A stretch of 64,000 nt of DNA, taken from contig CATNEN010000001.1 in assembly GCA_950097015.1 (NCBI GenBank), positions 18,538,001 to 18,602,000 on the forward strand, given 5' to 3'. Positions 453 through 64,000 of this stretch are shown one piece after another (the first letter of the stretch is position 1; every line of letters starts with the position of its first letter). The position numbers and the translations under genes are program-made. The DNA is from Macrostomum hystrix (Eukaryota; Animalia; Platyhelminthes). The notes beneath the pieces are model-generated. The model saw only the letters and a program-made list of their open reading frames with translations, was not told the DNA's origin and searched no databases.

Positions 453-483
453 GGTGAACTGAAGTGGTTGCTTAGCAACTAAC

Positions 484-36517: not shown

Positions 36518-36552
36518 GCCTTAATTTATCTTATAGTCTGCTGAACATTAAC

Positions 36553-36568
36553 TGATAGCAGAGCGTGG
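36553..36568 (+). other. Primer-binding-site-like sequence (tRNA-iMet type) of BEL #2
   Basis: TGATAGCAGAGCGTGG resembles TGGTAGCAGAG, the complement of the initiator tRNA-Met 3' end; it sits between ...GAACA and the gag ATG. Confidence 0.6.
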
Positions 36569-36575
36569 TTGCAAA

Positions 36576-41125: not shown

Positions 41126-44100
41126 TTATAAATCTTCTGAGCTGCTGCTCGCAACTCGAGGGCGCTTTCGAGCCGCCGTAGCTCCAGATGCCGCAGCTCC
41201 GACCGCCGCATCTCCAGATGCTGCAGCTCCGGCCTCCGCAGCTAAGGCCGCTGAAGCTCCGGCCTTCGCAGATCCGACCGCCGCACCTCCAGATGCCGCC
41301 GCCGCGTTGCGCTGCCCGGCACTGATTCGCCGCTCCTTTGCCGCCTGCCTCTCGGAGGCGTGTTTTAGGAGGTTTTTTAATTCCCTCTCCACGTCGGACT
41401 CCGATGGTCGACTTTGCTGGTGGTAAAGCACGGCGACAGCGTCTGAAAGTGTTCAGAGTCTCAATGACGAAATGCTCCTGATATGATTGCCTAATTTGCC
41501 CATAACAATTTCATGTTGCCTTACAATAATAATACTAATAATAGTGACACTAGACCCAAGGGCCAGTGCAGGTGTTGGTGTATCAAGCACACTAGCAGGT
41601 GGGGACTGCATTCCCCGGCTTTCTCGGACACCTGTTGACAGCCGCGTGTCAGCAGTGGAATTTATTTTTTCCAAACAAATCGGCAGCATTCGAACCCCAC
41701 TGAATAGCCACACAAAACTGCTTTATTACACGCCAGTCGGAATTATTATTAACCGACGAAATGTCGGCGCTCATTTGCAGCTGAGTAGACTGTGTGCACA
41801 TCAGGGCAAAGCAGCTTGCCAACGGCTGCACGAATAGTTCTAGACTAGGTCGGGAATTTGCATGAATATGATGAATATCTTACCTAAGAAAATACTGCTG
41901 AAATTGCGGAATCCCAGCTGGTCGTCCGACAACTCCACGCCTGGTTCGGCCTCGCGCAGTCTCGCCGACATGTGTCGTCCTGACCAATTGACAACACACT
42001 GCATGTTGCTAGCAAGGCACTTGTTCAGCATGCGCTTGCATGTGTCGTGGACTGTGCTTCCCCGACAGCTACGGAGGCATTCGGCCTGTTTGAGGTTGAT
42101 TTAGTATATTTTTAGTTTTTAGTGTACTGTTAGTACACAAAATTTATGTGTACAGTGGTCTAATTTTTTTTAAATGGCTTAACTTGTAAAAAGTTGTGAA
42201 TACTACTATTAGTATTGTAGCAGTGAATTAAAAATCGTTCAAGACAAAAATATAATACTCACCAAACGCCCTTGTTGCACTCTGGAATTCCGGAAATTCA
42301 CGTAGTCACTCCAACTCGAAATCGGAGTGAAATCCGGTTGCCCAGCGTTGTTAGACCGCTGACCGAGCTGCTGCAAACCGAGCTGCTGCACACCGAGCAG
42401 CCGCTGCTGCAACTGCTGCATAAATTCAGTCAGTCTCGCCGACATAGCATCAACTGACGAATTCATGTCTCTCCGGAGAGCTTCGACAGCGGCATGTGTC
42501 TCATAGCATCTCCTAGCAGTCAGGGTCGCCAAATAAATGGCCGTCTTCTGGGATGCAGGGTCCAGGCCGCTTGTTCGCAGCCGATTCTCAATTCCGGCCA
42601 TAGAGGAGCCTGGTTGGCCCAGGAATCTGCCATAGTCTTTTCACAATGTTAAGTGAAGGGACGGGTTGATAAGTACGAGATAAGTTTGTAACTAAGCAAG
42701 TCTCTTTGCGAATTACAAATCAATAAGATTGTGAATGGATCAGTGAGTCTGAATGATTGAATAGTGAGTCTACAAATGAGTTAATGCAGAAATATTATTT
42801 TAGAACCTTACCATCAGCCACTTCCTGATGGAATGAGATGCTCGGTGAACGCTGAATGTCTGATGGCCCCGAGCATTTTGGCACAGTAGTGGCGTCATCA
42901 TCTGTGAATGTAAGCAGAGTGGTGGGGAAATAAATTAGACTCTGAATCACAGTTTGTAAATCTGCTAGTAATTGATTGAGTAAGTCTGAATGAATGAACC
43001 TGTGAGTGAGTCTGTCAATGAATTGAACAGTGAGTTTGTGAATGAATTGAACAGTAAGTCTATAAATTAATGAACCAGTGAGTCTGCGAAATTCTATGAA
43101 TCCGTGAGTTTTTGAATACGTGTTTGTATGGAACCAATTTAGTCAAAGTATTATAGACTCTTACCATTAACAATAACAATCGGAGATTCCATTGCGCCGG
43201 TTGAATGCAGGTGGTTCTCCTGGTCCTCCAGCAGTCTTTGAGGTGAGGATGTGGACGTGGATGGGATCAGTGTCGCGGTGCTGCTAAATCTTAGCAGCTG
43301 CGGTCGATCAGGCAGAGGAGCTGCTTTGGAGCCCACATTCCTCCGATTTATGGCCTCGGAAGCTTCCCTCTCGCTCTCCGAGGTAGTAATGTTCTGTTTT
43401 AATTTTAGAAGGAAATGTGGTGATATGCAGTGTAATGAATTGTGTTAGAAGTCAAAACGAACTCCAATTTTAAGTGTCTCGGCTCTCGCTGGGGGCAGAC
43501 AGAAAAGGAGGAACAGAAGATCAGTGTGTGGAGCCCAACCAGTCAGGCTCAACATTATATTCGAGGGCTCTGGGCCCAAGACAAAGCAGGCTACAACAAG
43601 CGCAGGGGAAGGCATGTGAACGCACAACGGAAAACTCGGTGCGCAGTGCCCATTAGAAAGCGTACAGCGCCCATGAGTCAGTCAGTGGCCCTACAAACTG
43701 AGTACAATTGCAAGCAGACAGTACAGTGTTAGTTTTGTGCGGTCAAAGTTCCGGGGTAGCTATTCTGCTTATTGACAAACTCAATTTGTGTGGATTAAGT
43801 CTGTTAGTGAATGAACCAGTGAGTCAGTAAAAGAATAACTGAGAGCGTGTGTAAATGAATTAATCAGTGAGTCTGTGAGCAAATGAATGAGTGCGTCTTT
43901 GATCTGTGAATGGTTTAAGCAGTGAGTCTACTTGGATAACTAATAAAAATGTCTGCTGTTTATTAATAGACAATCTGTTATAGTACAATTTGTAGTGTCC
44001 TACCTGAATGGCTCCTAATCGGTTTCGGTGGCGCCCGGCATTCACCCGACAAACGGCCTTCAGCAGCGAGTCCACACTTTTCTTCTTGATGGTGCGCATT

Positions 44101-44348
44101 CTCCGCAGGTGAAGGACGGTTGGCGTGCTGTCCACTTCTGGGTCAGTGACCACCTGGAGGAGAACGGCGTCATACCATTCGCCACTGTACTCTGCCCTCA
44201 CCTCAATTCTCGTTGCTGAGTACAGTTCCGAAGGCTCCATGCTGGCCCAGTCAAAATCCTGGTATTCACCAAGCATAATCTCTGTCTCATCTACTTCTAA
44301 AATTTCACCATCATTAGAGAAAAATACAATATAGCGATTGGACTGCAT
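41126..44348 (-). CDS. DUF4806/BEN-like accessory protein, ~509 aa. Exons 44348-44004, 43393-43165, 42901-42812, 42609-42263, 42085-41884, 41442-41126
   Basis: Six exons with GT-AG borders total 1530 nt and stay in frame; coiled coil followed by GSTVHDTCKRMLNKCLASNMQCVVNWSGR...SESDVERELKNLLKHASER (DUF4806/BEN-like pattern); beta-rich N-terminus. Confidence 0.75.
41530..41855 (-). mobile_element. SINE family B, 5'-truncated, in the last intron of the DUF4806 gene
   Basis: Closely matches 61030-61360. Confidence 0.85.
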
Positions 44349-44413
44349 TTTAAGCTTTTATAATAGCTTCAATATAAGAATTTGAGAGACTAAGTAGCTA
44401 GAAGTTTTCTAGA

Positions 44414-44745
44414 GACTATAAAATTGCTCAACAAAGATTGATAAACTATTCATATACGAGCTACGTACGTGCAGATATGCTCCGTTGGGACCCAGCCTTC
44501 TCAAAGCTTTACTGGACAAGAGCCAATGCAAGAGCGCGTAATCCGACAGAGCCAATCCGGTTAGAGCGAGCCGAGCCAATAGCGAACAGCTCGAGCGAAT
44601 GACTCGACAAAGGCAAGCTAGCTTTGTAGTAATTGAATTTATTGTAATTTACTTACCTTAAGTATCTGTAATTTCCCGGGTATATTTACTGTAGTTTGCG
44701 TTTTAATATCGTTGATCACCATCTACTAGCGTTGATGGTGATTCT
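44414..44745. promoter_or_regulatory. CCAAT-box promoter module, copy A (upstream of the DUF4806 gene)
   Basis: Three GAGCCAAT boxes near 44520, 44548 and 44573; homologous to 45941-46325. Confidence 0.6.
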
Positions 44746-45545
44746 ATTTTTCCGTTGCGATGCAATTATTACAATATGCATGATAGTCTAGCTTATCTAG
44801 CAATCGTTGCAATGATATCATTACAATCTGCCGGTCAGAACTCAGAACTCATGATTACTAGACTTGCTAGACACGCCTACTATGCATATGCTGAGCCTAC
44901 AGCAGCTAACAACAGAATTAATTTCTTTCATGTGTTTTTTTAACTAAATGGCTAAATAATTAGGAATGCGTTATCAACAATGTATGCTGTCTTGTAACCG
45001 TCTCTCATATACACGGTTTGTACGACTATGATTAAGAACTATGATTCCGATTCAGACTGTCCTGATTCAGACTGTAATTGTCCTGATGTCCTTTGATTTC
45101 TCAATAAGGTTTCACATACATACTAATACTATGTATTGTATATATACAAAACTATTCCTTATTGTCAAGTCAACAACTATACGGAAATCCAACCAACCAG
45201 TGCCAGTGGCACACAAAAAATTGAAGACGGCGATGAAAAATTATGGCTTGTGTATTTTTTGTGTAAATGTGTATTTTTTAAACATTTATTTATTTAAAAA
45301 TGTGCGCGTGCGTATTTGTGCATAAATATTGAACACAACATTAATACAGTTATTTATAAATTATTATTGTCAATTATCGCCACTTAAATTGGTCAGCCGG
45401 TCCCGGTCAGCCGGCCGATCTGCTGCCCAGCAGCGATTCACAGGACGCCCGGCTGCGATATAAAAGATGGGTTTCAGTTTCATTTAGCTTATTAGCTCGG
45501 TTATCAGATCAGATGCGTTAATAAATATTCTAATAATAATAATAT

Positions 45546-45884
45546 TCAAAAGCGACTACTCACATATGGGTCAAGGCCCGCCGCTATGCGGCGAGCTCTG
45601 GCCATCCGAATCATGGCCAGCTTCATAAGACGCGTCGCTTCATTCAGCGCGTCCTGTGCCCGGCGCCGTGCGGGCGTCCAGGCCACTGTCGCCGCCATCT
45701 CTTCCGCAGCGACGAGGCATGACTGGATGGCCTCATCCAGTTTGGTGGTGGCATTGGCCAGAATGTTCGCCCGGAACTGTGCCGGGAACAAATGAAAGTT
45801 GAACTCATTGACATCAGCATCCAGGCCATGGACATGGCATTGGCTGCTGTTGATGTTGTTGCTCTCGCTGCTGTTGCTATTCAT
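45546..45884 (-). CDS. Orphan ~112-aa helical protein (transposon cargo)
   Basis: AAAAAAATG start context, GC-rich coding-like ORF in AT-rich surroundings, directly downstream of promoter copy B; no family recognised. Confidence 0.55.
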   Translation of the reverse strand: MNSNSSESNNINSSQCHVHGLDADVNEFNFHLFPAQFRANILANATTKLDEAIQSCLVAAEEMAATVAWTPARRRAQDALNEATRLMKLAMIRMARARRIAAGLDPYVSSRF

Positions 45885-45940
45885 TTTTTTGTTGAAGGAA
45901 GTTAGTTGAGGGAATTTTAGTGATCTGGTGGGAGAAGTTG

Positions 45941-46325
45941 CAACTATAAAATTGCTCAACAACGATTGATCATCTATTTATATATGAGCCATACGTGCAG
46001 ATATGCCACAGGTGGGTCCCCGCCTTCTCAAAGCTTTATTGGACACAAGCCAATGAAAACTTGCCCGCGCCGCGCGGAATCCGACAGAGCCAATCCGAGC
46101 CAAGAGCGAGCCGAGCCGGCTCGAGCCGAGCGAGCCGAGCCGAGCCGAGCCGAGCTGAGAGCCAACTCGACTCGAGTCTCGACAAAGGCAAGTAAACTAG
46201 CAATTTTAGTAAACTAATGAATTGTAATTTACAGACCTCTAGGCTCTAGTAATATTATTTTCCCGGGTTAATTTACAGCAATTTTCTTTTCAATATATCC
46301 CATCTATTAGCCTTTGATAGCCATC
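45941..46325. promoter_or_regulatory. Putative bidirectional CCAAT promoter module, copy B (between the orphan ORF and the transposase)
   Basis: CCAAT/ATTGG boxes and a (GAGCC)n expansion at ~46096-46165; divergent ATGs at 45884 and 46339. Confidence 0.6.
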
Positions 46326-46338
46326 ACTTACTCACAAA

Positions 46339-49091
46339 ATGTCTAAAAGACGGACTAAAGGCGACACGAACCCACGACGAAAGTTTCAAAATTGGCTCAC
46401 AAAGAACCTACTTGACTTTGCGGACAGTGATGTAGAAATGGACCAAGTGAGTTTTCAATTTTTATTGAGTTTCTATTTAAGTTTCATGCAAGTTTGTGAA
46501 GAAATTTGACGAGGGTGGGGCAGACAGGCAGGATTGACGGGGTGCTAGGTTTGATTGATTGCCTCGAATTTTATGCACAGTTTCATCGTCGTCTGTTTTT
46601 CCTCTTTATTTTCAATCAGGAGGTTGCATCTTCCCATGCAGATGGCGCAAGCCTCATTCCACCTGAGGATTCGCGGCCTGATTCTACCAGTGCCGGTGTC
46701 AATGCCTGTGACCCCATGCATTTATCAGCTAATAACGAGGCTTTCGACGAAAGTGAGGCTGATGAGTTCGACTACGCCGATCACTTGTCAACAGATGCGG
46801 AAGATGGGGACCCAGGCCAAACAGCAAAGCCATCATTGGAGAGCCTGAATGAGGAGCTTCTAATATTCTTCGTTCGTTACAACATCTCACATCGAGCGAT
46901 GCAGTTCCTGCTCAATGCTCTAGTCTGCCGAGGCCTGCCGGTCGCAAGAACAGTGCACCGTCTGCGCAAAGAACCTTCGGCTGAAGCAGTACAAATACAA
47001 AAGTACACCATGGGTAGTGGACACTTTTCCTACATCGGTATTGCTTCGAACCTGGCGTTCCTGATTCGCGGCGGCATGTTGGATCTTGGAAATCCGGAAG
47101 CCACCCAGAATGACAGAGCAAGGTTGGAACTGGACATTGATGTTGGCATTGACGGAATGCCGATTTACAATTCGTCAAACTACGCGGCATGGCCTATTAT
47201 CGTTAAGTTTTCGAGATTCTGTCGCCCACTTCCTGTTGCTGTGTATGCTGGGTTGGGTAAACCACCTCTTACCGAGTACCTGGCCGACTTCATCAAGGAG
47301 CTGCAGTCCTTCATGACCGACTTTGTCGAAGTTGATGGGGTGCTAATCCACATCAGGAACATCACGTTCATTTGCGACACGCCAGCGCGGTCCTTCATTA
47401 CCGCAACTTTGGGCCACAACGCACATCACGGCTGCCCCTACTGCAGAGTGGTAGCCCAGACGGTCGACCGGCGAATAGTCTACCCTGTCGAAGTCGGAGA
47501 GTGTCGCACAGCTGAGGATTACCGTTTTAATAGGTGCGTGTGTGTGCATGGGGTTGTGTGTATGTGTGTGTGCTTTTGCGAATTTTGTATACCAGCTTAT
47601 ACATCTGTATATGCCTACATGGCAGGATATCTGACATGTTTTTACATGTCTACGAACCTGACCTGACGTTGTCTTAATACGTGAATCAGTTAATCATATA
47701 AATATGCAAATGGCTGTATCGCGATATGGCAACTAAAGAAATGTGATTCCGATTCAGACTGTCTATATAATGGCTGTCCTTTTAAATCTCAAAAATTATT
47801 CACATACTTGCTATATACAATATAAAATATACAATATTCAATATACAATAATATACAATAGCTCGATTCCCGACTCCACTGAAAAAATTTGTGTCCTTTA
47901 GCAAGACACTTAACTCTGCAGTGCTTCGGTTCACCCAGCTGTTAAATAGGTACCAGCATTAGCTGGGGTAATTGAAGGTGGGTGTATGGCGTCCTCCCAG
48001 TCCATGGACTGAACAGCCGTACGCAGCCTTCAGATGCGCCGCGCATTAGCTGCGGCTGTGCTGTCGATTGGGGCAGGTGTAATCAATTATTATTATTACT
48101 AGTCTTTATCGCCAACAACTACTGCAGGGAATCCAACCAGCGGCATGAACCAAGTCCGCTCCTGTCACTGCCAGGCTTGCAACTACCTGATGCTTGCCCA
48201 CCGGAGCCAATGCACCTGCTCTTTCTAGGCGTCGCTAGGCGTCTTTTCACCTTCCTCTTTGCGGTGGATGACGGACGGCGGCGCAAAATTAGGCCGGATC
48301 AAGTTTCCGCACTTTCTGATTTTGCCGAATCACGTGCTATATATACACCGACAAATTTCCAAAGACGCCCTCGGAGAATCGACCGAGAACTCGGACATTT
48401 CAAATCCAGCGAGTTCCGCACGTGGACTTTGTATGTGGGCCCGTATTTTTTTCGCAAATTTCTGCCAACAGAGTTGTACAGGCATTTTCTTCTATTTCAC
48501 TTTGCCTGTTATGTTCTTTGCTCTGATAGCCCACAGCCTGAACTTCTTGATGCCGCTGAATCTGCCATGAAACTTTTTGTGTATGACGCAGCTCAACTGT
48601 ACGGCAACAGTTTCATGACTCACAATGCTCACGTTCTTTTGCACTTGTTTCAATACGCGAGGCAACGTGGAAATGTGTCCAACTTTTCGGCCTTTCCATA
48701 TGAGAACTACCTCTCTCACTTAAAGGGTCGCCTTCGAGTAACGCGCTTTGTATCATCTTACTTGCTAAATCAAATGCTTTCACTTCGCGACTTACTAGTC
48801 AGCAACCCAATTCAGCCCATTAAGTACTCTGTTAAGATGCCCGACAACTGTTGCATCGTGAATGGCTCAGTTGTTCGGATTACTTCTGTTCTTGGTGACC
48901 AAGTAACTGGCAATATTCTGTCGCTGCAAAAGGACTTGTATGACTATCCATATCCGTCCTCAAAACTGGGTATCGGAGTCTATTGTAAAACACGATCTTT
49001 TGTTACTGGCACTCCCCACAGGAAGTGCTTTCTGTTCCCGCGCAAGACCGGAAAGGCATGGCTGGTGATTCCTCTCTCTGGTGTTGATTAG
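46339..49091 (+). CDS. EnSpm/CACTA (Tnp2-like) DDE transposase, ~661 aa, apparently intact. Exons 46339-46446, 46620-47533, 48128-49091
   Basis: GIDGMP...WPI (D1), FICDTPARSF (D2), GHNAHHGCPYC, PEPMHLLFLGV, FKSSEFR, HNAHVLLH, SAFPYEN (E); 1986-nt spliced frame without stops. Confidence 0.9.
47862..48100 (+). mobile_element. SINE family C copy in transposase intron 2
   Basis: B-box remnant CTCGATTCC, TGTGTCCTTTAGCAAGACACTTAA...CACCCAGCTGTTAAAT.GGTACC core, (TTA)n tail; matches copies at 54865, 60215 and 60680. Confidence 0.8.
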
Positions 49092-49912
49092 TGGAATCGC
49101 ATTCTGTTCCACCCTTGTCAGCAAATGTAATTTTGACTGTTAATGTTTTGCATCAATTTGACTACAGACATAAAAATGTACAAATGTAAAAAACTGTATA
49201 CTCCCTGTATCCCTGTAAACTGTATACTGATATTGAGCAGCAAAGTCCGAATAGCAAAATAAATACCGGGAATCGGGAATGATAAGCGATAAGGTTTATT
49301 TGAGGCGGTGTGTGGTCTCCGATAACAGGAGTCCATTTTTCTTGCCGTCCGTTGCCTGAAGAACGCGTTGACACTTTAATGCCAAAACTTTGTTCTTTCG
49401 CACATTTTTACGAAATTCTTAAATCGAATTTAATTTTATAAGGCATTCGAAAGCGTGTCATTATCTTCGTAATTGCTTTTATTGTACGCGTACTCATTGA
49501 CTTAGAAGCTTAGTGTTTTAGCAACAAGCATGCTTCCAGAATCACTTAATTCCCATTAATTGAAGTGACTGCTAGAAACGGTAAACATCTAGCTAGTAGA
49601 GCTCTTCTGCATGGTCACAGGACTTGCACGGCCAAAAGAGGAAGGAGCAGCTAAAAAAAACTGATAAACTGATGACTGGTCTCCCCACCACAGACAGAAG
49701 GAAAGCCGGCCTTATCTTATCCATTTGGTCTGTGCTCCCAGAGAGAGACTTCTAGAAATAACAACTTCTAGAAACTTCTAGAAATAAAAAGTCTGTGTGC
49801 TCCCCTCCCCACCCCACTTGATCGGTCCCACCCAAACCCGTTCAGAGTCATTACACACTACACAGGAAATTATTTTGCGATTTATTTTCATCACAAAAGT
49901 ATTTAATATTTC

Positions 49913-51366
49913 ATGGATATAAGTGATCAGTGGCTAATATCTGACTGCGGAAGTGCAGACACAGCAGCGCCCGGTTTAAAAATTCGTTTAAAGCGCGTAT
50001 CGACCGCCCTCAATGAGGTGAGAATTCAGAGGCAGCAAATTATTTGAGATTGTAAAAAGTTTACAACTTTTCCTTTATTCTTTTGTTATATTTCTATTGT
50101 ACACTCACGTATTGCACGCATACATTGCCAGACTTCCCAACGCGCTGATCAGGTCAGGGTGACCTGCGAAACTGGCCCGGGACTTATAGTCCGATTCAAG
50201 CGACATTCTTGCGCAATTCCATCAACGGCTGAACTTCAGGTGAATGATAATGTATGTTACCTGCCTGTTCAATAACTTGTCCTTCTAAGTATTCTCCTTC
50301 TCCCCTCTGCAACTATAATCTCCCACTATAATCTTTGCATGTAGGCCCCGCGTCTTAATTTCTGTTATGCACATTCTCATGTTTCTGCATGAGAAAATAT
50401 TAAAAATGTTTAATTTTTCAGACTAACAAACGCGCTGTCCCTGAGGTCAACGTCGAATTATCCTTCTCCGACAGCGAGGAAGAGGGCGAAGGCAACTCAC
50501 GCGTGGATCAATCTTTACGAATCGCCCTAGCAGTATGTCCATTAGAGGTTCGTCAATCAATTGAGTGCGGTTAGATGGTGTGGCTGTATAAAGCTGATTT
50601 TGGGGCAAAGTTTCCTTTTCTGTAATCGTTTTTCTTTGAGTAACTTAATGAGAGAGGAGAGGATTAAGAGGGAGTAAAAAGTAGAGGCCGATTAAGTGAG
50701 ATGAGATGCAAACGAGATGTCAGCAAGCAAGTGAAATGTGAGAGAGGCGATGGAGAAAAGGGCGATTTAGAAGCATGAAAAAAAACAAATTAAATCGTGT
50801 TTAACTACACCCCCGCACAGCCTTTGCCTGACCCGACCGTTAAGAAGAGGCCGGCTCAGAGGCTCAGCCGATCTAGTGTCGATTATCGTCCCCCGACATC
50901 CACTAGAGATACAACCGAGCGCATACTGGGCATCAACGGGAAGACAGACACCGCGATCGCTGTTGCACCTGCGGGCGAGAAGGGACTGGGCGCCTTTGCG
51001 AGAATCAACCTAGCTGCGGGGGCGTTTGTCGATCAATTCGCCGGAATCCTGCTGAACGAACAGGAAGCGATTAGACGCGAATGTGAACCTAACTCCGACT
51101 GGATGCTATTTGAGTTTAAAGTTAACGGCAAATTATGGGTAATTGACGCCAGCAACAGTGACGGATTGGGAAGGTACCTGAACCATTCTTCTACTGCTCC
51201 TAACTGTAAAGCAAAGCTCATTATTATCGACCAGGGGCTGCGACCCGTCATTTATTTCGTGACAAATAAATATGTTGCAACGGGCACAGAACTGACGTTC
51301 GACTATACGACTGGTAGAGGTATCGATAATGATGATCTTGTGAAGAACCCATGGCTTCGAGACTAG
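49913..51366 (+). CDS. PR-Set7/SETD8(KMT5A)-like SET-domain methyltransferase, ~290 aa. Exons 49913-50017, 50132-50239, 50422-50532(or 50547), 50821-51366
   Basis: GEKGLGAFA, FVDQFAG, EAIRRE, MLFEF, WVIDAS, LGRYLNHS, GTELTFDY and a C-terminal NPWL as in SETD8 HPWL; the three upstream exons are phase 0 with GT-AG borders; AATAAA at ~51464. Confidence 0.85.
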
Positions 51367-52319
51367 AAAGACACGCATGTTATTATGACTCGTCGCTTAG
51401 TTTATTTTGCTAAATCTTTAATCATGTAACAATCATGTTTAATTATGTATATTCTTTATTACAAATAAAGCAATGGCGCATTGAGAAAATGGTTACTTTT
51501 CTGAAAAGTTTCTTGGAATTTGTGTCATAATTTTTTTAATCGCTTAATGTACTCGTACTCATTGGCATAATAAAGTAATAAAGCAAACAGGATGCTCCAG
51601 AATCATCAAGCAAGTAAATATAATTTAATAGTTTTATAACTCAGCAAATATCTTTTCCTAACAGACTGTACATATCTGTACAAATCTGTACATATTTTAA
51701 TTTTTCGAGACAAATAAAAGAGTATTTTTAGCGGCAGAGTTCTGCGGAAGTTCGGAACTGACTCGCGCCCCCAGTCTTTTAGGGATCTAAAACCAATTGA
51801 AGTGAGTCACAGAACTTGAACAGCCAAAAGAGGAGGGAGCAGCTCAAATAAAAACTGATAAGAATATTTAGAACGTAATGCATGTGGGTCTCCCCACCAC
51901 AGACGGAAGGAAAGCCTTATCTTATCAATTTGGTCTGTGCTTCCCACCCGATCAGTCCCACCCGATGTGCCACGGCGTTCCTGCATGGCTTTCGAAGTTT
52001 CGGAGAAGGGCAATGGGGAATTTATGAACAGGGACTATTTTACTTAGATAGACTTAAAGTTGTTTTAAAAAAGCTTGAAAACTTCATGATGAGCTTGAAG
52101 ATGAACTTTCCTTCATCATGAGGAAATCATTTGAAATCATGAAACCAACTCAGTCGTGTAGGAAATCATTTCTAGGTTGATTTTCAATTGAATCCGACTC
52201 GATAAACTGTGCTCAAATCTATTGGGACACCGACGACAGCCATATAGTACTGACATAGTCAGAGTTAAGATAAACTTTTCTAGGTGACTTTCCAGGTTAA
52301 TAAGTTCGAGTCAAATAAA

Positions 52320-54865
52320 TTTGATGATGATCCCCCAGTTAATGATGATCCCCCAGTTGATGATGATCCCCCAGTTGATGATGATCCCCCAGTTGATGAT
52401 GATCCCCCAGTTGATGATGATCCCCCAGTTGACAATGATCCCACAGTTGACAATGATCCCCCAGTTACCAATGAACCCCAGTTGACAATTATCCCCCAGT
52501 CGAAAATGATCCCCCAGTTGACAATGATCCACAAGTTGACAATGATCACTCAGTTGATTATGATCACCCAGTTGACAACGATCCCCCATTTGATGATGAT
52601 CCCCCAGTTGATGATGATCCCCCAGTTGATGATGATCCCCCAGTTGATGATGATCCCCCAGTTGACCATGATCCCCAAGTTGAAAATGATCACTCAGTTG
52701 ATTATGATCACTCAGTTGACAATTATCCCCAGTTGACAATGATCCCACAGTTGACAATGATCCCCCATTTGACAATGATCCCCCATTTGACAATGATCCA
52801 CAAGTTGACAATGATCAGTCAGTTGATGATGATTCCCCAGTTGACAATTATCACCCAGTTGACAATGATCCCCCATTTGATGATGATCCCCCAGTTGACA
52901 ATGATCACTCAGTTGATTATGATCACTCAGTTGATGATGATCCCCTAGTTGATGATGATTCCCCAGTTGACAATTATCCCCCAGTCGACAATTATCCCCC
53001 AGTTGACCATGATCCGCCAGTTGACAATGATCACCCACTTGATAATGATCCCCCAGTTGACCATGATCCCCAAGTTGACAAAGATTCCCAGTTGACAATG
53101 ATCACTCAGTTGACAATGATCACTCAGTTGATTATGATCACGCAGTTGACAATGATCCCCCATTTGATGATGATCCCCCAGTTGATGATGATCCCCCAGT
53201 TGATGATGATCCCCCAGTTGATGATGATCCCCCAGTTGACCATGATCCCCAAGTTGACAAAGATTCCCAGTTGACAATGATCCACAAGTTGAAAATGATC
53301 ACTCAGTTGATTATGATCACTCAGTTGACAATGATCACCCAGTTGACAATGATCCCCCAGTTGACAATGATCCCACAGTTGACAATGATCCCCCAGTTAA
53401 CAATGAACCCCAGTTGACAATTATCCCCCAGTCGAAAATGATCCACCAGTTGACCATGATCCCCAAGTTGACAATGATTCCCAGTTGACAATGATCCACA
53501 AGTTGACAATGATCACTCAGTTGATTATGATCACCCAGTTGACAATGATCCCCCATTTGATGATGATCCCCCAGTTGATGATGATCCCCCAGTTGACCAT
53601 GATCCCCAAGTTGACAAAGATTCCCAGTTGACAATGATCCACAAGTTGACAATGATCACTCAGTTGATTATGATCACCCAGTTGACAATGATCCCCCATT
53701 TGATTATGATCCCCCAGTTGATGATGATCCCCCAGTTGATGATGATTCCCCAGTTGACAATGATCCCACAGTTGACAATGATCCACAAGTTGACAATGAT
53801 CACTCAGTTGATTTTGATCACTAAGTTGATTATGATCTGCCAGTTGACAAGTATCCCCCAGTTGATGATGATCCCCCAGTTGACAATGATCCCACAGTTG
53901 ATTATGATCACCCAGTTGACAATGATCCCCCAGTTGACAATAATCCCACAGTTGACAATGATCCCCCAGTTGACAATGATCCCCCATTTGATTATGATCC
54001 CCCAGTTGATTATGATCAGCCAGTTGACAAGTATCCCCCAGTTGATGATGATCCCCCAGTTGAAAATGATCCCACAGTTGACAATGATCCACAAGTTGAC
54101 AATGATCAGTCAGTTGATTATGATCACTCAGTTGACAATGATCACCCATTTGACAATGATCCCCCAGTTGACAATGATCCCACAGTTGACAATGATCCCC
54201 CAGTTAACAATGAACCCCAGTTGACAATTATCCCCCAGTCGAAAATGATCCCCCAGTTGACCATGATCCCCAAGTTGACAATGATTCCCAGTTGACAATG
54301 ATCCACAAGTTGACAATGATCACTCAGTTGATTATGATCACGCAGTTGACAATGATCCCCCATTTGATGATGATCCCCCAGTTGATGATGATCCCCCAGT
54401 TGACCATGATCCCCAAGTTGACAAAGATTCCCAGTTGACAATGATCAACAAGTTGAAAATGATCACTCAGTTGATTTTGATCACTAAGTTGATTATGATC
54501 TGCCAGTTGACAAGTATCCCCCAGTTGATGATGATCCCCCAGTTGACAATGATCCCACAGTTGATTATGATCACCCAGTTGACAATGATCCCCCATTTGA
54601 TGATGATCCCCCAGTTGATGATGATCCCCCAGTTGATGATGATCCCCCAGTTGACCATGATCCCCCAGTTGACAATGATCCCACAGTTGACAATGATCCA
54701 CAAGTTGACAATGATCAGTCAGTTGATTATGATCACTCAGTTGACAATGATCCCCCCAGTTGACAATGATCCCACAGTTGACAATGTACCTCCCCTGTTG
54801 ACAATGATCCCACAGTTAACAAAGATCCCCCAGTTGATCATGATCCCCCAGTTAACAATGATCCC
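52320..54865. repeat. 2.5-kb 18-bp satellite (GTTGACAATGATCCCCCA)n inside the transposon
   Basis: About 140 units with recurring variants; diagnostic blocks recur at ~52460, ~53390 and ~54200. Confidence 0.95.
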
Positions 54866-55070
54866 TGAATTGCTTCAGTTCAACCAGCTGTTAAATGGGT
54901 ACCAGCATCAGCTGGGATACTTGAAAGGTGGGTGTGGCGTCCCGCCAGTCCATGGACTGAACAGCTGTACGCAACCTTCAGATGCGCCGCGCCATAGCTG
55001 CAGCTGTGCTGTCGGCTGCACATCTGGCCCAATTGGGGCAGGTGTAATCAATTATTATTATTATTATGGT
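54865..55070 (+). mobile_element. SINE family C 3' half abutting the satellite
   Basis: Matches 47920-48100. Confidence 0.8.
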
Positions 55071-56626
55071 GGTATGTAATTCTATGGTAATGTGTTTACA
55101 TAATGGCGGAGTGATTTGGAGAGTCGTCCATTTACGCTCGTAAAGCAGGTCGCTCAATTGTGAGGGCGACCGGCATTATGAATTTTGGCGCTGATTCATT
55201 TCTTAAATTCTAACAGCAACTGCGCACTTGGTGCGGCCTCTGATGCGCAAGTTGACAAGATTTTTTGGCTCAGTTGTGCCAGCTCAGTATTATTAACTTA
55301 TTAAGTATTGTAGACATAGATGAGCCGCCTTCAGGAAAACGATCCCAAAAGATTCGATCGTAGGTGAAAGCACTAGCTGTGTCAGCATTATGTTTTGCTG
55401 CATAACGTTTAAATTTCGAAATTAAAGAAGTAAGAGTCAACGAAAATAAATATAAATTTCTAACGCAGTTCAGTATAAAGAATTTGTCTGACTGGCTGCT
55501 TAATTGCCGCACAAAGAACGTTTAATTTTCTGTATAAATAGTAAAAGGATGCATAGCGGGAGAAAAAAAGTAAACACCAAGTATCTGTATACATATGGGA
55601 TAGGCCTGGGATAGGATTTGGATAGCACTCAAACCGGAATGTTTTGTAGAATTAAATATCTGCAGGGTACTAAATGCAAAGCAACTGAAGAAGAGTGAAA
55701 TTGAACAGACGAACAGTAAATTACAGAAATAAAAATAGGAAAGCTTAAAGAGCAATAATAAAAGAGCCCGCCTTTACTTGATAAAGGCACTTTGACTTTT
55801 TCTTTCGTACAAAATGCCTGTTGTGACTATTAATTAGTAAAAACTTATTTTCGAATTTATTTCTCACGCCGAACAGTTATATTGCAGTGATTATGCCGCT
55901 AAACTAAACAGTACGGCAACAGTTTAATGACGCTCGAACTTCTGAGGAGCAATCTTAGAATAGACACTAATATCAATGTCATCCGCAGCTTCCATTTCTC
56001 GACGCACCTGACCGTGTACCGGGCGTCAGGTGTTCATGGAGAATATCTGGAAGAAATTCGGAATGTTTTAAACCCAATTTACATACGAGTATTTATCTGT
56101 CTAGAATGATTGCCCTTAATCAAAATTATAAACGTATATTACCAAATTTGTAAAGGGATCAGTGTCATTGACAATACAACAACAAAACAGCAACAACAAC
56201 TGTCTTTGACAATGGCAATTAGAAATATATTTACTGATTATTGTCTACAACCGTAATGGTAGACAATACAATAGCCTGGGGAATTTCATGGTCTAACCCA
56301 ACTAAATTTTGAGAGATCCAGAGGGGAAGTAAAATACACAGCAGAGATAAGAGTCTAGAGTCACTAGAGTCTAGACTAGACAAACAAAGCGTTTCTTTAG
56401 GGCAAGGACTTCTATAAATAGCATCTATAAATAGATCGATGCTTGTATTCAGAGGTCCTTGCTTTAGGGTGGCATAGATACCTTACATTGTAACTTGATT
56501 TGGCTAGCTGTCTAAAGCGGAGACACGGCCACAATATTTTTTCCAACAACTATAAGCAACAAAGCGGAAGCGGCCAAGAGTAATATTAACTGGTTCCTCT
56601 TAGAGGCTGTGCCAGACACTGGGACA

Positions 56627-57637
56627 ATGAATTTTGATAGCCGAAATACAACTGAATCCCTAAAGGTAAATCTATATGATTCGAGACAGTGACTGGTTGT
56701 TCTATGGGAGACAGTGGGTATCTACTAGGAGTATATCAAAATCTCGTAGATTTTCTAGGTAGCTAGCTTATAGCTAGAAAGACAGTTACTATAGCAACAC
56801 TTGATTGCGGAGAGTGGCTAGATTGTCTAGCTATGGGACACGGTGTCTAGATTGATTGTTCACGGGAGACAAGCTAATCGCAAACCCATTTATTCTTACC
56901 AGCCCGTCGATGACCTGGGCAGTCTAGACAATTTGGACTTCGCCGTGATGCGCTGCGAATTCAGTGACCTCCAGTCTTACGAAAGCGCTGCCCTCTTCGA
57001 TTTGTACAAGCCGGTTGCCAACGAAGATGACACTGGGGCCATGAGCGCATCGGAGTCCATCTGGTCCATCGGACAGCAACAGCATCCGCAGCAGCGACTG
57101 AATGCTTCGGCGATTGATTGCTCCCTTTGCTGGGTTCATTCGCTTGATCCGCCCACTTCGCATCTCCCAACGCATGTGCAGCCGCCAGGCGTCATAAAAA
57201 GAACAAGGAAGAAGCGTGCTGGCATCGGTTAGTGTTTTTGAGCTGCGAAAATTTGGGATTTGAGAATCTTTAGTATTTAACAACAATTAGCTATCAAAAC
57301 TTAGCATTGCCCAACCTCAGACAGGAATTTTTGGCTGTGGGAGTTTCTGTACCAGTTACTCGAAACTCCGTCTGTCGCTGACCTGTCGCCACAATGCTTG
57401 CGCTGGGAGAACAAGCTGGAGGGCATTTTCCAAATTCTAAACCCAACCGGCCTAGCAGAGGCCTGGGGCAGTTACAAGCGGCGGGACATGAGCTTTGAAA
57501 CGATGAAGCGAGCGCTGAGGCATTACTACGAGGACAAGCTTATCACCAAGACCCACCCAAGAGACAAGCACTTTTACAAATTTCACTTCGACCACGAGAA
57601 AGTAAAACTTTTTTTAGAAAAATTACAGACAAAATGA
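56627..57637 (+). CDS. ETS-domain transcription factor, ~226 aa. Exons 56627-56665, 56903-57227, 57321-57637
   Basis: WLWEFLYQLL...LRWENKLEGIFQIL...LAEAWGSYK...MSFETMKRALRHYY...FYKF is a complete ETS domain with both invariant Arg residues; 681-nt in-frame splice; duplicated TCTATAAATAG TATA-like motif at 56411-56434; AATAAA at ~57664. Confidence 0.88.
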
Positions 57638-57949
57638 CATGTAAATCAGAAATCCCATAATTTAATAAATACCTCAGAAATCCCTACATTGCCCTAGAAA
57701 TCACATGATCCAGACAATGACTCAGAATTACATCACGGATTGCCTGATTGTCAGTTGCGCTACTTCACTCATGTAAACTATTGTTTCTTACGGCCATGTT
57801 TTGTTCTGTTTTCTTGTGTTTTCTCATATTGTCCATGCATGACTTATCATCTGTTATTAAGCCTTGATTTTGAAGACATGTAATTGAGACCGACTGTTTC
57901 CTATAAAAGTATGATATCTACGAGTACTTATAAATGCTATACTATAAAT

Positions 57950-59370
57950 AAACTAATAGTTGCTGCACATTATTTCATAAACTAAAAAACAAAAAGCACA
58001 CTTAACGTTGTTGCGAGTGCAGCCGTGGAACTCTATTGACATGACAAGGAGTTCGTGAATGTCGCTGTCGTTCTCTAACCTGCTAAACTCGGCCAGATGC
58101 AGCTAGCCGGGACGCTGGGCAAACTTGTGCTCGACGCTGACTGAAATTCCCCATGCTGCAGAGGGTTAGATCAATTCATTTATCTCATTTTGAATTCCTA
58201 ATGTGAATTTAAACTCAAACTGCTTAAGAAGAAAGTAACTGCATACCTGTACATCCGAGGTAAGAGCTAAGAGCGATGTCTCGTCGGTACATTTTCTGCC
58301 GACCACCTTGCAACACACGTCTCAGGATTTTCTGGAACGGGGAAAACTAAAATTGGAATTTCACAGTATACAGTTTTTGCTTTCGGTTGAAATTCGGTCA
58401 ACTATGAATTTCAGCTACATTTCTGCAAGCCTTTAAGGGACAGATGCCAGCTATTATATCAAGTCATTCTAAGAAGCTAATTGCATGCATCTTAAGTACA
58501 TCTTAAACACAAAGCAAGGTGCAATAGCTCAATAAATATGTTTGTTGTCGTGCAAAGCTAAAGCAATTTATAAATACTTAATGCATGCAGTGCATGTAAT
58601 AAATAAATGAGTGTGAAATAAATATAAAGACACGAAGGCATAGATATCCAAAAATCCTATGGCGCTGCAGTGCAGGATCGATCCTATACTCTGCTCATCA
58701 TCTCATCATGCTCAGAATCAGTGCTCTGAAAGGCGAAAAGGAGTTTTAAGGCACAAATATCATTATTTAGTAAAAACATGCACCTTTAATAGTTGCTTTA
58801 TCCAATGGCAACAAGGGCATGCATCCAACTCTAAGCGAATGCTTGGAGTTTGCTTATGGAATGAGCTGCATGGTTAGACACGAAGTGCGGCACGTACGAC
58901 AAAAAGACTAACGTTATAGCATTTAGCTACTATATCATATTAAAAGTGAGTGCATGTTGCTTTATTGTAATATTGTGTTTGCATTTGTGGTGTGAATTGC
59001 AGCTTGTTAAACGACGTGTAGCTAATGGCTAAAAAGAGATTTAGTTTTACCATGCACCTAGCACCAATATGAAGATTTTAAAGGAAAGTAAAACCTGCAA
59101 AACCGGGTATATCTTTTTTAGGATGTTTAAAAGCATATTTTAATAATTGTTAAAAAACTGTCAAGAATTGCGAAGAACTATTGGTATAAAAAAGCATAAA
59201 GTGGTTTAACAAACCTTTTTATTTATTTCCACCGGAAGGTAGGTGCCGGGGCGGGGTGAAGTTGGTAGATGCCCCGGCACCTACCTTCACCTTCCAGACC
59301 ACCACACGTTGGCCCTGGCCCACCGTGTGTGGCTCAAGAAGCCACGGTGAGCCAGGGCCCTGCTGCTGCG

Positions 59371-59427
<57 letters not shown>

Positions 59428-59434
59428 TATCCAT
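57950..59434 (-). pseudogene. Possible spliced polyQ orphan gene or pseudogene. Exons 59434-59285, 58331-58247, 58155 onward
   Basis: MDNHH-polyQ exon with a GTAG donor and in-phase acceptors; the third exon hits a TAG after 17 codons although the frame stays open beyond it. Confidence 0.35.
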
Positions 59435-60214
59435 GGTTATCCTGATTATCCAAAATTGAGCGCTCTATCTGAAATTAAGTGGTCTCAATCAAATTCGTAT
59501 CATTTTAATCAAGATCGTATGAACAGATATTAGTATGATTATCGATTTTTAAGAGCACTCAGCACTGAAATCTCAGAGGAATCAAATGAGAAGCAATCAA
59601 AAGAATCTCGAAGGAATTAAACAAATAAAAGAAATTCAAAGACAGACGAAACAAGACTAGGTTTCGGCAAGAGTGTTCTATTAAATAAATTCAGCTGACT
59701 GGTGAGTTACTAGTTTTAATTGTAGCTCGAACATTTTTTATCAGACTAATTTAAATGGCTAATAGTAATAAGTTTTTCAGCTATTAAAATATTCAACATT
59801 ATTGAACAGGTGCTTATCACACTAGCTGGAATGGTGGCATTTTTGACTGGCTTAAGGCAGTACTACCTATAGCAACTGCTTTCCTTACATCAGTGCATCT
59901 GAGAACTGCTGGTCACATAGTAAGGGCTTGACTAATCATGATCCTTTTGTGAAATACTTAACACCTAACCCACAATTGATAGCTACTATCAATTGTAACT
60001 CAAATTAATTTTGAGCCATTGGTTTAAATAATACATGTGTACAGGTTCAGTTTGTCTAAAAAGGTACTATGCATGTATTTTTTAACTTAAAAGCTTACTA
60101 AACATATATACTACCTCTGTATGTCAGACCCTAAAGTGTCATAAAAATTATAGCATTCACTAGCTATTGCTAGCTGTTGGTACTAGCTAGGGTTATTTGG
60201 TCTGCTGTATTCAT

Positions 60215-60420
60215 GTGAGACAATTTGTGTCCTTTAGCAAGACACTTAATTTACTCTGCATTGCTTTAGTTCACCCAGCTGTTAAATGGTACCAGCATTC
60301 GCTGGGATAATTGAAGGTGGGTGTGGTGTCCCCCCAGTCCATGGACTGTACAGCTGTACGCAGTCTTCAGATGAGCCGCGCAATAGCTCCGCTGTGCTGT
60401 CGGCTGCAAATCTAGCCAGT
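60215..60420 (+). mobile_element. SINE family C copy
   Basis: Matches 47885-48065. Confidence 0.8.
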
Positions 60421-60679
60421 GACCCCAGTGTATACTTGAGTTATTTGGTCTGGTATTTAGCAGCTAGGGGTCGGCAATGAGCCAGTGGGCCACTTACAGA
60501 ACCTAAAAGACGACGGCTGTATTAAATGTAGGAATCTGAGAAAGGGCAGGGATTAGACATAGGATAGATGAGGCAGGGGGGAATTAGGGTGGGGGTTTGA
60601 TTCCTAACTCTACTGGTACAACTTAATATGCCCTTTGGCAAGAGGCCTAACTTGCTTGCTTCAGTTCACCCTGTTATAA

Positions 60680-61020
60680 AATTAATAATAATCCATTAAC
60701 TAATTACAACTGTCACTATGGGCCAGATGTGTAGCCGACAGCACAGCTGCAACTATTGTGCGGCGCATCTGAAGACTGTGTACGGCTATGGACTACAGCC
60801 AGTACAGTCCCTCGACTGGGGATGGCTACACCCACTATAAGTTACCACAGCTAATACTGGTACCCATATAATAGCTAGCTGAACTGAAGCAATTCAGAGT
60901 TAATTGCCTATCTTAGAGACACAAATTTCAAATTGTTTCTTAAAGAAACAGGAGTCAGGAATCGAACCATCAACCTTCAAGATGCGAGTCTGACGCTCTA
61001 ACTGCTGGGCTACAACCCAG
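60680..61020 (-). mobile_element. SINE family C, full length with tRNA head
   Basis: Reverse complement GGGTTGTAGCCCAGCAGTTAGAGCG...GGTTCGATTCC (A and B boxes), followed by the family C body and an AT-rich tail. Confidence 0.8.
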
Positions 61021-61029
61021 CTGTAAAAT

Positions 61030-61420
61030 ATTAATAATAATGACACTAGACACAAGGGCCAGTGCAGGTGTTGTGTGTCAAGCACACTAGCAGGTGGGGA
61101 CTGCACACCTAATATACTCCCCGGCCCTCTTGGACACCGGTTGACAGCCGCGTGTCAGCAATGGAGTTTATTTTTTCCAAACATATCGGCAGCATCCAAA
61201 CCCACTGAATTGCCGCACAGAACTGCTTAATTTCACGCCAGCCGGAATTATTATTCCCCGATGAAATATCGGTACTCATTTGCAGCTGAGTAGACTGTGT
61301 GCACATCAGGGCAAAGCAGCTTGCCAAAGGCTGCACGAATAGTTCTAGACTAGGTCGGGAGTTGAACCCAGGACCATCTGATCCAGAGTCCGACACCTTA
61401 CAGACCGAGCTATCCGCCCC
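61030..61420 (-). mobile_element. SINE family B, full length with tRNA head
   Basis: Reverse complement GGGGCGGATAGCTCGGTCTGTAAGG...GGGTTCAACTCCC, body shared with 41530-41855, (TTA)n tail. Confidence 0.85.
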
Positions 61421-61431
61421 TCTGTTTATCC

Positions 61432-61620
61432 AAGCTAGCTGTAAAATGGGTACCAATATTAGCTATTTGAACTTAAGGTGGGTCTGGCATCCCTCAGTCC
61501 ATGGACTGAACAGCCATGTGCAGCCTTTAGATTCGAGTGTATGCTGCACAATAGCTGTGGCTGTGCTCTTGACCATACTGCACAATTGGCCGGATAGGTA
61601 TAATAAATTATTAATTACTT
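61432..61620 (+). mobile_element. SINE family C diverged 3' half
   Basis: GCTGTAAAATGGGTACC...CAGTCCATGGACTGAACAGCC. Confidence 0.7.
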
Positions 61621-62694
61621 AGCCTATATATAAATATAATATATGTGCTATGTTATTTATTTTTCTGCTCTGTTTAATACATTTAAAACCAACAAGCTAA
61701 CCAACAACTCTCTTAACCACCTTATCCTTTTCAAACAGGTTAAGGAATGGCAAGATTCTCAATCTGCATGTACGAGAGCTTACTGGAACTTCTACTGTAT
61801 CTGGTGCTTGGCCAACAAGAGCTAGCCTGAATGCTGCTGCCATCCAAGATTATGAAAGGCATGATTGACTATAGCTCACTGTTAACTGACAGATCTTTGC
61901 TTCTTAATGCCTAAGCATGACCAAAACTGCATGCCACATACCTAGGCTAAACTAGCTAATAAGTAATAAAACATTTTTCATGATAATTAGTTCTCATATC
62001 ATATAGCTATATAACAGTTTCTTTCTTTCACTGTTTCAATAGAATAGGCACTTGTGAAAGCCCAAGAATAAACAGAAGTTAGACTTGAAGTATCTAGAGC
62101 AGAAAATAGGAGTTGTAACCTAGCTATATAGTATATAGGCATTTAAGCCTCACTTGGTACAATTCATTATAATATGGTGCAAAAATATGTATTTTTTGCT
62201 AAATAAAAGTAAATGTACACTATGCGCTTTAAAGTAACTCTCTTTTTGTAAAAAATATTCCTGTGGCTTCATAATATATCCTAACTAAGCTACAATGACA
62301 TTGCTGATCAAATAGACTTTCACTTAATAATTAACTTATATATAGATAAACCACAAAGTGATGGCGAGTTTGATATCGGTGTTTATATTCACTTTGTCTT
62401 GTCTAATGAATTTCAGTGTCTTACTGTGAACAGTTTTTGAGAATTCGTTGATCGAATCGAGAATTCTCACGTACATAATAGCTAATTAATTGAGGATCCG
62501 GTCAGGTCAAAGTGAAAGTTTGCAGTGCATGCGCTTTCAAAAACTTTGCTCAGGCCATTCTTTCGCTTTTAAGCTGCAATTTGAAACTAAAAAAATTGAT
62601 TCTGACTTCTTATTAAGTTTAGTGCAACTGGCTTCTTCTGAGACAAAACTTTTTATTGCCTGCGGTCAAAATACATGTGTTTGTTAAATTTTAC

Positions 62695-63720
62695 ATTCAC
62701 GTCGCCTTTTTACGGACTCAAATCGGACGGAAAACGGACCATCACAATTATGCGATTTCTACCTATTCTATATACTCCTAAATACATAGCTATTCGAGAT
62801 GTAATGCAATTAAAGCAGTTGCCGCATTATCAATCATTTTATACGGCTATTGAGCGGTTTACTGCAGACGGCCGGAATATGCATGGCCGACCAGAAGATC
62901 GAATTGTATACACGCTCAGAATAGTTTGATGATTCCACTATATACTCGTAAATTGCTTCACTGATGCACACAAATTTTATTTCCTAGCTCTCACTGATCA
63001 GTAAAACAGTAAGTATATGTGTAAATAATTTATATCTAAAAACTAAATATTACGATTATACAAACCAAACATTTAACTTGCTGCACTACTAACGTTTAAA
63101 TACGAGTAGTATTTCAAGCATGTTAGGTTCTGTACAGTAGATCAAAAAATTACCTTTTGCGGACTGGAATCGGACTGTTGGAATTACACAATTTTTCATC
63201 TTTTAAATGCATAAGTAACGGAAAATAAAGCCTTTTATGACGTTTTCAGCAGCTAACTCAAGAATTTTTTTATGGAACATCGTCCTCCTCGTCGCCCTTT
63301 TGAGGACTCAAAACGGACCGCGGACGCGTCGGCCTTTTGCGGACTAATTTCGGACTGTACGAATTACACATTTTTTCATCTTTTAAATGCATTTAGAACT
63401 GAAATCAAGGCCTTTTAAGACGTTTTTAGCAGCTAACTCACGAGTAATTTTTTTTGGAACATCGTCCTTCTCGTCGGCCTTTTTCGGACTCAAATCGGAC
63501 CATTTTGGAGCCGGTCGACGCGTCGGCCATTTTCGGACTAAAATCGGACTGTACGAAGTACACATTTTTTCATCTTTTAAATGCATTTATAACTGAAATC
63601 AATACCTCTTAAGACGTTTTCAGCAGCTAATTCGATTTTTTTTTAGCTGAGCTGACATAGGGTTAGATCGGACCGTAGGCGTCGAAAAGACGTCTTTTCG
63701 ACGATGCTTTTTACACCGGG
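62695..63720. repeat. Subterminal repeats of the CACTA right end: CGGACT-N4-TCGGAC motifs, ~190-bp tandem units and a 24-bp palindrome
   Basis: Motifs at ~62713, 63160, 63303, 63340, 63485 and 63535; perfect palindrome CGTCGAAAAGACGTCTTTTCGACG at 63680-63703. Confidence 0.85.
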
Positions 63721-64000
63721 AAGCGACACAAAGGAAAGTGACTGGCGGTTAAGCCCAGAGCGGTTTTCGAGCTACCGCAAATTGCGCAGCGTGACGGCAT
63801 GGGTTCAACGTTTCATCAGCAATTGTCGACTGCAAAAAGATCAGAGGAGAGTGGAAGAGCTCGAGGTTGCCGAGTTGCAAGATGCCGAGGAGGGGATTCT
63901 GCAAATGGCGCAAGAAGAGACATTCAAAGCTGAAATTTAAAAAATCCGTCATGGAAGGCCAGTCTCGTCAACCAGTCAACTCCGCTGTCTTCAACCGTTC
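63721..64000 (+). pseudogene. Continuation of BEL #2 pol after the CACTA insertion
   Basis: SDTKESDWRLSPERFSSYRKLRSVTAWVQRF...ELQDAE...AQEETF, homologous to RFSTLEKLLRVTAWVLR in BEL #1. Confidence 0.9.

Follow-up and report, generated by a model that had tools for sequence, protein, structure and literature searches.

Can a host-type transcription factor gene be carried by an animal DNA transposon, and does such a gene serve the element that carries it? This question is raised by a stretch of 64,000 nucleotides of the Macrostomum hystrix genome (contig CATNEN010000001.1, positions 18,538,001 to 18,602,000 of the forward strand; hereafter the window, whose own numbering is used for all coordinates). 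A sequence-only reading had described there a small intron-containing ETS gene and had placed it inside a DNA transposon.

The location inside a DNA transposon was borne out by the two termini, the matching 2-bp flank, and the retroelement that the insertion interrupts (Table 1). The terminal inverted repeats (TIRs) are 21 bp long and match at 20 of 21 positions between the ends (E 2e-5), and each strand of the window contains the terminal 12-mer a single time, with no internal copies. Only 2 of the 123 12-bp inverted pairs with 2-bp flanks begin with CC or CAC, and the element ends are one of these two pairs. When compared separately, both sides of the target aligned in order to one and the same pol; the interrupted retroelement and its neighbour are presumably of the BEL/Pao type. 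An inverted CCCAGCG match (42338/58122) lies in an exon of ORF2 and was for that reason not accepted as a terminus. CGGAC motifs cluster at both ends of the element, with 18 of the 25 copies in its first 300 or last 1200 nt. To the left of the element, two adjoining retroelements occupy 32293-36484 and 36552-40272, the second being the one broken by the DNA transposon; in the other, the direct repeats (275 nt) are identical and the pol frame is open over 1036 codons. Positions 1-23600, left of the retroelements, hold genes that look like host genes by their ORFs, among which we assume a PDK1-like kinase (472-2425, minus strand), an ankyrin-repeat gene, a Mab-21-like ORF, a BAR/PH/RhoGAP/SH3 gene, and a WW/PTB adaptor.

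Table 1. Features of the transposon, its genes, and its insertion site in the window.
Feature	Position	Strand	Remarks
Whole EnSpm/CACTA-like (CMCT-clade) DNA transposon	40273..63720	.	23,448 bp; TIRs, 2-bp direct flank, interrupted pol of presumed BEL type
Left terminal inverted repeat	40273..40293	+	Starts CCCGGTGTAAAA; AA at 40271-40272
Right terminal inverted repeat	63700..63720	-	AA at 63721-63722
Pol of presumed BEL type, left of insertion	39834..40272	+	Target; matches the second pol of this kind in the window over residues 401-514, E 1e-22
Pol of presumed BEL type, right of insertion	63721..64000	+	Target; aligns with residues 548-611 of the same reference pol, E 1e-6
Subterminal repeats	63143..63633	+	Three copies of about 117 nt
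ORF2	41126..44348	-	Six exons, about 518 aa, zero stops; four frame-compatible splice choices
Small ORF	45546..45884	-	112 aa; upstream region duplicated with that of ORF2
DDE transposase	46339..49091	+	Exons 46339-46446, 46620-47533, 48128-49091; 661 aa, intact
SET-domain gene	49913..51366	+	Four exons, 289 aa, intact; SETD8/KMT2-like
18-bp minisatellite	52327..54865	.	141 copies, inside the element
Antisense intron	56047..56899	-	853 nt, GTAAGA donor, pyrimidine-rich CAG acceptor; joint from X5-X8, depth 0 in X1 and X3
Two TATAAATA motifs	56413 and 56426 (56413..56433)	+	Upstream of the ETS gene; missing in one variant
ETS coding exon 1	56627-56665	+	13 codons; splice predicted, absent from contigs
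ETS exon 2	56903-57227	+	N-terminal motif common to M. lignano ETS proteins; variants carry frame-keeping indels
ETS exon 3	57321-57637	+	Entire ETS domain, then predicted C-terminal helix

The transposase has the motifs D214, D289, C308xxC311, H509xxxH513, and E533, which are conserved in the homologues that cover them, and among named proteins it is most similar to an M. lignano "transposase domain-containing protein" (about 54% identical). Animal EnSpm families often start with CCC and have a 2-bp duplication. The termini of the element are CC..GG rather than the 5'-CA..TG-3' of EnSpm in the strict sense. According to the passage on the CMCT clade, a DDE triad with C(2)C and H(3)H motifs is common to that clade and CA..TG ends are given for most of its members (PMC12730594); the element has the catalytic, C, and H motifs, TIRs, and a target duplication within 2-5 bp (the AA flank). 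A Pfam search of the transposase reached DUF4218 at 21.4 bits, under the cut-off of 27, and gave no match to Transposase_21. Its look-alikes in the Atlas scored 0.91-0.97, and two of them carry Transposase_21/DUF4218 families on 12-20% of their members. Because the CC..GG ends differ from CA..TG and the Pfam support lies under the cut-off, the element is, as judged from its sequence features, EnSpm-like and not an EnSpm in the strict sense.

No match was obtained when the transposase was aligned against solved structures, or among longer proteins when its exon 2 was used in a word-index search. Of 365 metagenome loci carrying a related transposase, the best 80 (median length 4.75 kb) gave no match to ETS, SET, ORF2, or the small ORF, and are too short to exclude cargo. 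The M. lignano model P0199, which combines this transposase family with a Swi3 protein, looks like a merged gene model and was not taken as cargo.

Five genes with intact models were found in the element: transposase, SET, ETS, ORF2, and the small ORF. The sequence-only reading took the retained introns of the ETS gene to imply capture at the DNA level, in which case they would be those of the donor; the transposase, ORF2, and SET genes of the element have introns too. The SET domain was recognized by Pfam at 48.9 bits (cut-off, 22.4), and the PDB matches of the protein were KMT2D and SETD8, with the SETD8 alignment extending to the C-terminal end. The SET protein has a Phe just before the final DY motif and another Phe in the N-terminal half, at a position where Tyr is usually conserved; if these residues have the roles that we assume for them, both changes may alter the methylation state or activity. 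ORF2, which may be DUF4806-like, gained no confirmation of this from either search, as four of its exon pieces gave no informative Pfam match and no usable Atlas match was obtained; the small ORF likewise had no Pfam match.

Several repeats lie between and within these genes. One pair of duplicated non-coding blocks comprises 44415-44710, upstream of ORF2, and 45943-46300, in the gap from the small ORF to the transposase; a second pair is found at 49614-49840 and 51806-51960. The two duplicated promoter regions contain three CCAAT motifs each and zero or one GGAAG. The 18-bp minisatellite has open frames on both strands and ends directly at a copy of a short repeat. Two short repeat families have very high depth, one at approximately 47885-48100, 54865-55060, 60220-60440, 60700-60930, 61420-61620, and 14525-14590 and the other at 41690-41858 and 61195-61363; both look SINE-like and, within the element, are confined to introns or intergenic parts, and two insertions of this kind are lacking in other copies. 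In the right part of the element, at 59235-59430, two neighbouring GC-rich inverted repeats (arms of 18 and 17 bp) that can form hairpins are followed by a CTG run. An Rfam scan of 40000-64000 gave zero matches.

Evidence on copies was drawn from public contigs aligned to the right part of the element, run X9 (share 0.06) excepted. The deepest DNA run, X3, covers the ETS gene at a summed contig depth of 1073-1592 and the last 1.5 kb of the element, its right end, at 1128-1674, as against 142.5 for the flank bin. Gene and right end are thus similar in depth, about 8-fold over the flank, a ratio that is no copy number and whose reference flank may itself be repeated. The corresponding depth in X1 was 15-34 over the ETS gene and 23-66 at the right end, and zero cover (X5 and X8 at 62196-64000; X1, X5, and X8 in the flank bin) was given no evidential weight. 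Joints at 59838-60420 and 61008-61437 represent copies without two repeat insertions of the present copy. The X3 pieces over the ETS gene fell into all four identity classes (18, 18, 11, and 26 pieces), from more than 99% down to less than 90% identity. Taken together, the depth, the insertion-free joints, and the identity range of the pieces indicate that the element belongs to a family with several putative subfamilies. The linkage of the ETS gene to this transposase is seen in one copy, the one described here, the read alignment having covered the right half of the element. By its variant classes and its contig depth the gene is multi-copy, not a lone gene of the host, and, in accordance with the earlier reading, very probably the cargo of a multi-copy transposon.

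The ETS gene had been described as small and complete, with three exons and an intact domain, and it could be modelled cleanly as such: the three coding exons encode 226 aa with zero internal stops, both introns (237 and 93 nt) are GT..AG, and Pfam Ets is matched within exon 3 at 74.8 bits (cut-off, 26.9; E 7e-21; profile positions 2-80 of 81). Only one of nine AG sites tried as the acceptor of intron 2, that at 57321, brings the ETS domain in frame. The acceptor at 57305 was discarded; it loses the ETS frame, and the contig starts at this point are explained by a variant site at 57304. Matches of exon 2 to M. lignano proteins also confirmed this exon as coding on the plus strand. The doubled TATA-like motif and the polyadenylation signal reported for the gene are both present in this copy, the latter as AATAAA at 57664, downstream of the coding exons; they are, however, not constant among copies. 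The hexamer is altered at 57667 in 966 of 1051 of the X3 contig depth and in all of X6-X8, and one DNA variant (depth 243) lacks 56403-56473 and thereby both TATA motifs. Moreover, since the 8-mer TATAAATA occurs 20 times in the window on both strands, the pair is weak evidence when taken alone.

A structure model predicted from a 40-row alignment has an ETS winged helix-turn-helix fold with a C-terminal helix (pLDDT 85); a single-sequence model, all-helical with a pLDDT of 67, was set aside. Foldseek retrieved ETV6 as the best solved structure (E 5e-10, TM 0.74-0.77), and ETV6 likewise came first when solved structures were searched by sequence with the ETS domain. The domain retains its core Trp, Phe, and Arg residues. 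Both Arg residues of the recognition helix, MSFETMKRALRHYY, are kept as had been stated, and they are present in all 146 other ETS rows. Adjoining this pair on the DNA face are a Lys at a position where none of the 146 others has one and a Phe where 138 of 146 have Tyr. By comparison of residues, the recognition helix is a derived form, and DNA binding by the domain may, given these odd residues, be altered or weak.

The sequence-only reading also held the domain to be closest to the ELF type, which our analysis of its ancestry did not uphold. Among 2623 ETS matches, a three-domain protein came first, followed by two M. lignano ETS proteins (48% and 53% identity); these, PAA86414.1 (Mlig017052g1) and PAA67943.1 (Mlig029661g1), are the best single-domain matches and also contain the N-terminal motif of exon 2, and no near-identical M. 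lignano protein was found in this search. At E < 1e-4, exon 2 matched 7 of the 197 proteins searched, all of them from M. lignano. An IQ-TREE analysis of 49 domains picked from 147, with 88 columns only, placed the ETS domain of the window in a group with M. lignano ETS proteins and one unnamed protein (support 98/87), at the end of a long branch (0.83). The tree, the M. lignano-only matches of exon 2, and the choice of ETV6 as the best structure all speak against the ELF assignment. The ETM in the recognition helix does resemble ELF; when the domain was forced into an ELF-type clade, whose rows we presume to be ELF-type from a YETMGR helix, the tree was 23 log-likelihood units worse (AU p 0.075, 32 rows), a value at which this placement is disfavoured but not formally rejected. 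A forced ETV6/7-type grouping was 23-24 log-likelihood units worse (AU p 0.060, 32 rows) and was likewise not formally rejected; in the best tree the domain lies outside the ETV6 group. No PNT domain was matched by Pfam in exon 2 at E values up to 5, nor was one found in PAA86414.1 or PAA67943.1.

The cargo protein shares an N-terminal motif, a clade, and the absence of a PNT match with the M. lignano ETS proteins, but it is shorter (226 versus 298-363 aa), has a longer branch, and differs in its recognition helix. The gene was likely captured from an ETS gene of a Macrostomum-type host. A word-index search with the ETS exon gave no match among longer proteins, and no ETS relative was found in metagenome contigs. 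One contig (record of 2078 nt in X8 and of 1212 nt in X6) is approximately 86% identical to 56902-57009, matching the N-terminal motif only, and, as read by eye, its frame is open upstream where the end of the intron is expected; it may be an mRNA of the host donor or an older subfamily.

Sequence variants among the contigs bear on whether the protein matters. Within the 12 of 54 rows listed, one variant contig has exon-2 indels of -3, -3, -1/-2, -18, and +54 and a second has -1/+1 within 12 nt; both keep the frame. All four non-coding indels in these rows (5, 2, 2, and 2 nt) are not frame-preserving. A 2-nt insertion at 57626 lies downstream of an earlier stop in the same contigs. The best 40 of 158 rows contained 11 coding substitutions; the three in the conserved ETS core are all synonymous, and the remaining listed ones fall in the N-terminal part, the variable loop, or the tail. 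The non-synonymous changes among the listed variants are N23T, S34G, S139P, Q146P, and V216L, plus a stop four codons early. These counts are small and come from a ranked subset of rows. The frame-keeping indels in exon 2 together with the synonymous core changes suggest that the ETS protein is probably under selection.

The joint 56046/56900 was present in all four runs of study P2 (X5-X8), and the loose end of a variant at 56900 is a second acceptor form of this antisense joint. None of the nine runs listed is on record as RNA, X5-X8 included, and we infer that these four are RNA solely from the splice-like joint. Thus, a spliced antisense transcript likely crosses ETS exon 2, judging from the junction and its splice signals. 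The longest ATG ORF in the antisense RNA model is 83 aa, opposite exon 2. None of the nine joints listed for 55980-57800 matched a sense ETS intron, and the contigs read through both introns; contigs drop rare forms and show presence, not absence.

Eight ETS-type sites were found in the element against 3.6 expected, a number reached in 7 of 200 shuffles, and 12 against 9.7 outside it. Six of the eight are in coding exons, one is in the 5' region of the ETS gene itself, and one is behind the SET gene. The proposal that the ETS factor could drive genes of the element gained no support, with most sites in coding exons and the sole splice found being antisense. Because the sites are only mildly enriched and mostly in coding exons, it is rather doubtful that the protein would directly control promoters of the element.

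We consider it reasonably probable that the element took its ETS gene from a Macrostomum-type host and keeps this cargo as a working accessory regulator that aids expression of the element in some cells. In such a mechanism, the whole 23.4-kb unit would be moved by its transposase in a cut-and-paste manner that leaves 2 bp duplicated, and the ETS reading frame would be maintained by selection. The predicted ETS protein would bind GGAA-core sites and, with the SET protein, would favour transcription of the element in a small number of cells, of the germ line or among stem cells; in bulk tissue, the ETS gene would likely be held back by the antisense RNA. A more elaborate version, which we regard as decidedly unlikely, is a two-part module of self-control in which a re-tuned ETS protein recognizes copies of the element, the SET protein marks them, and the antisense RNA encoded by the element acts as a switch. 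If true, this module would be an animal counterpart of plant VANC anti-silencing, built from a developmental transcription factor family of the host.

The same observations can be read in other ways. The ETS protein might do little, the gene being a passenger whose antisense RNA silences the cargo or makes silencing costly by also hitting the host donor; a camouflage of this kind has been argued for captured genes in maize, according to the passage concerned (PMC13317346). The only splice seen is antisense, in four of four P2 runs and with a second acceptor form in a variant, the antisense model has just the short ATG ORF noted above, and neither the polyadenylation hexamer nor the TATA pair is kept in all copies. 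The frame-keeping indels and synonymous core changes, in contrast, point to selection on the protein, and about half of the residues differ from the M. lignano proteins, which, with M. lignano as a proxy for the donor, would make small-RNA cross-talk with the donor doubtful. We consider a passenger or camouflage role unlikely.

If the protein is made and selected, its targets might instead be those of host ETS factors, where it could compete or activate in stem or germ cells. The lack of clustering of ETS-type sites at element promoters, the duplicated promoter regions with three CCAAT motifs and at most one GGAAG each, and a protein shorter than its host relatives with the N-terminal motif retained would agree with a host-directed regulator; the same evidence, however, fits an accessory of the element, the target being the sole difference, and we hold action on the host to be very unlikely. 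Finally, no contig among those listed spans the element, which would fit a resident single-copy host ETS gene between separate element pieces or a misassembly. Against this stand the presence of one left and one right terminus, the 12-mer without internal copies, the matching 2-bp flank and interrupted target, and an ETS depth equal to that of the right end and about 8 times that of the flank; that the gene is not cargo at all is extremely unlikely. Retention of a captured gene as an accessory regulator of the element is the reading we prefer.

A 23-kb animal cut-and-paste element with intact ETS and SET genes would mean that a developmental transcription factor family can multiply and change its form when carried as mobile cargo, and ETS gene counts in flatworms may be inflated by transposon copies. 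The genus is open to transgenesis, and the element would allow a test of whether an animal transposon governs the state of its own chromatin.

Capture of an ETS gene by a mobile element is known from v-ets of the avian retrovirus E26. That capture occurred at the RNA level and yielded an intronless retroviral fusion, whereas here an intron-bearing separate gene lies in a DNA transposon. A literature search, with Repbase Reports, subscription journals, and supplements outside it, found neither a DNA transposon with an ETS gene as cargo nor an element of this kind in Macrostomum. Compared with EnSpm/CACTA and the CMCT clade as given in the passage on them (PMC12730594), the present element has CC..GG instead of CA..TG ends, does not reach Transposase_21, and is 23.4 kb long with five genes. 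The enlarged En/Spm families of the red alga Chondrus crispus are 16-20 kb long with 4-5 ORFs in the passage that describes them (PMC6431247), and both cases are oversized En/Spm-type elements with extra ORFs; the host here is an animal, the element is larger (a length due partly to the minisatellite and secondary repeat insertions), and its cargo is ETS and SET, whereas the algal passage names no cargo. Whole host-type regulator genes in eukaryotic DNA transposons are known, from the passages available, mostly from fungi, oomycetes, and plants (PMC12730594, PMC4067079, PMC13317346). They include SET genes in oomycete HarbingerS, MuDR, and Helentrons (PMC12730594, PMC4067079), the self-protecting anti-silencing VANC proteins of plant Vandal elements (PMC13317346), and TET/JBP carried in fungal transposons (among PMC12730594, PMC4067079, and PMC13317346). 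Those passages name no ETS gene and no pairing of a sequence-specific transcription factor of a host family with SET in an animal element; the likeness to the present element lies in the carriage by DNA transposons of whole host-type regulators for which an anti-silencing function has been proposed or shown.
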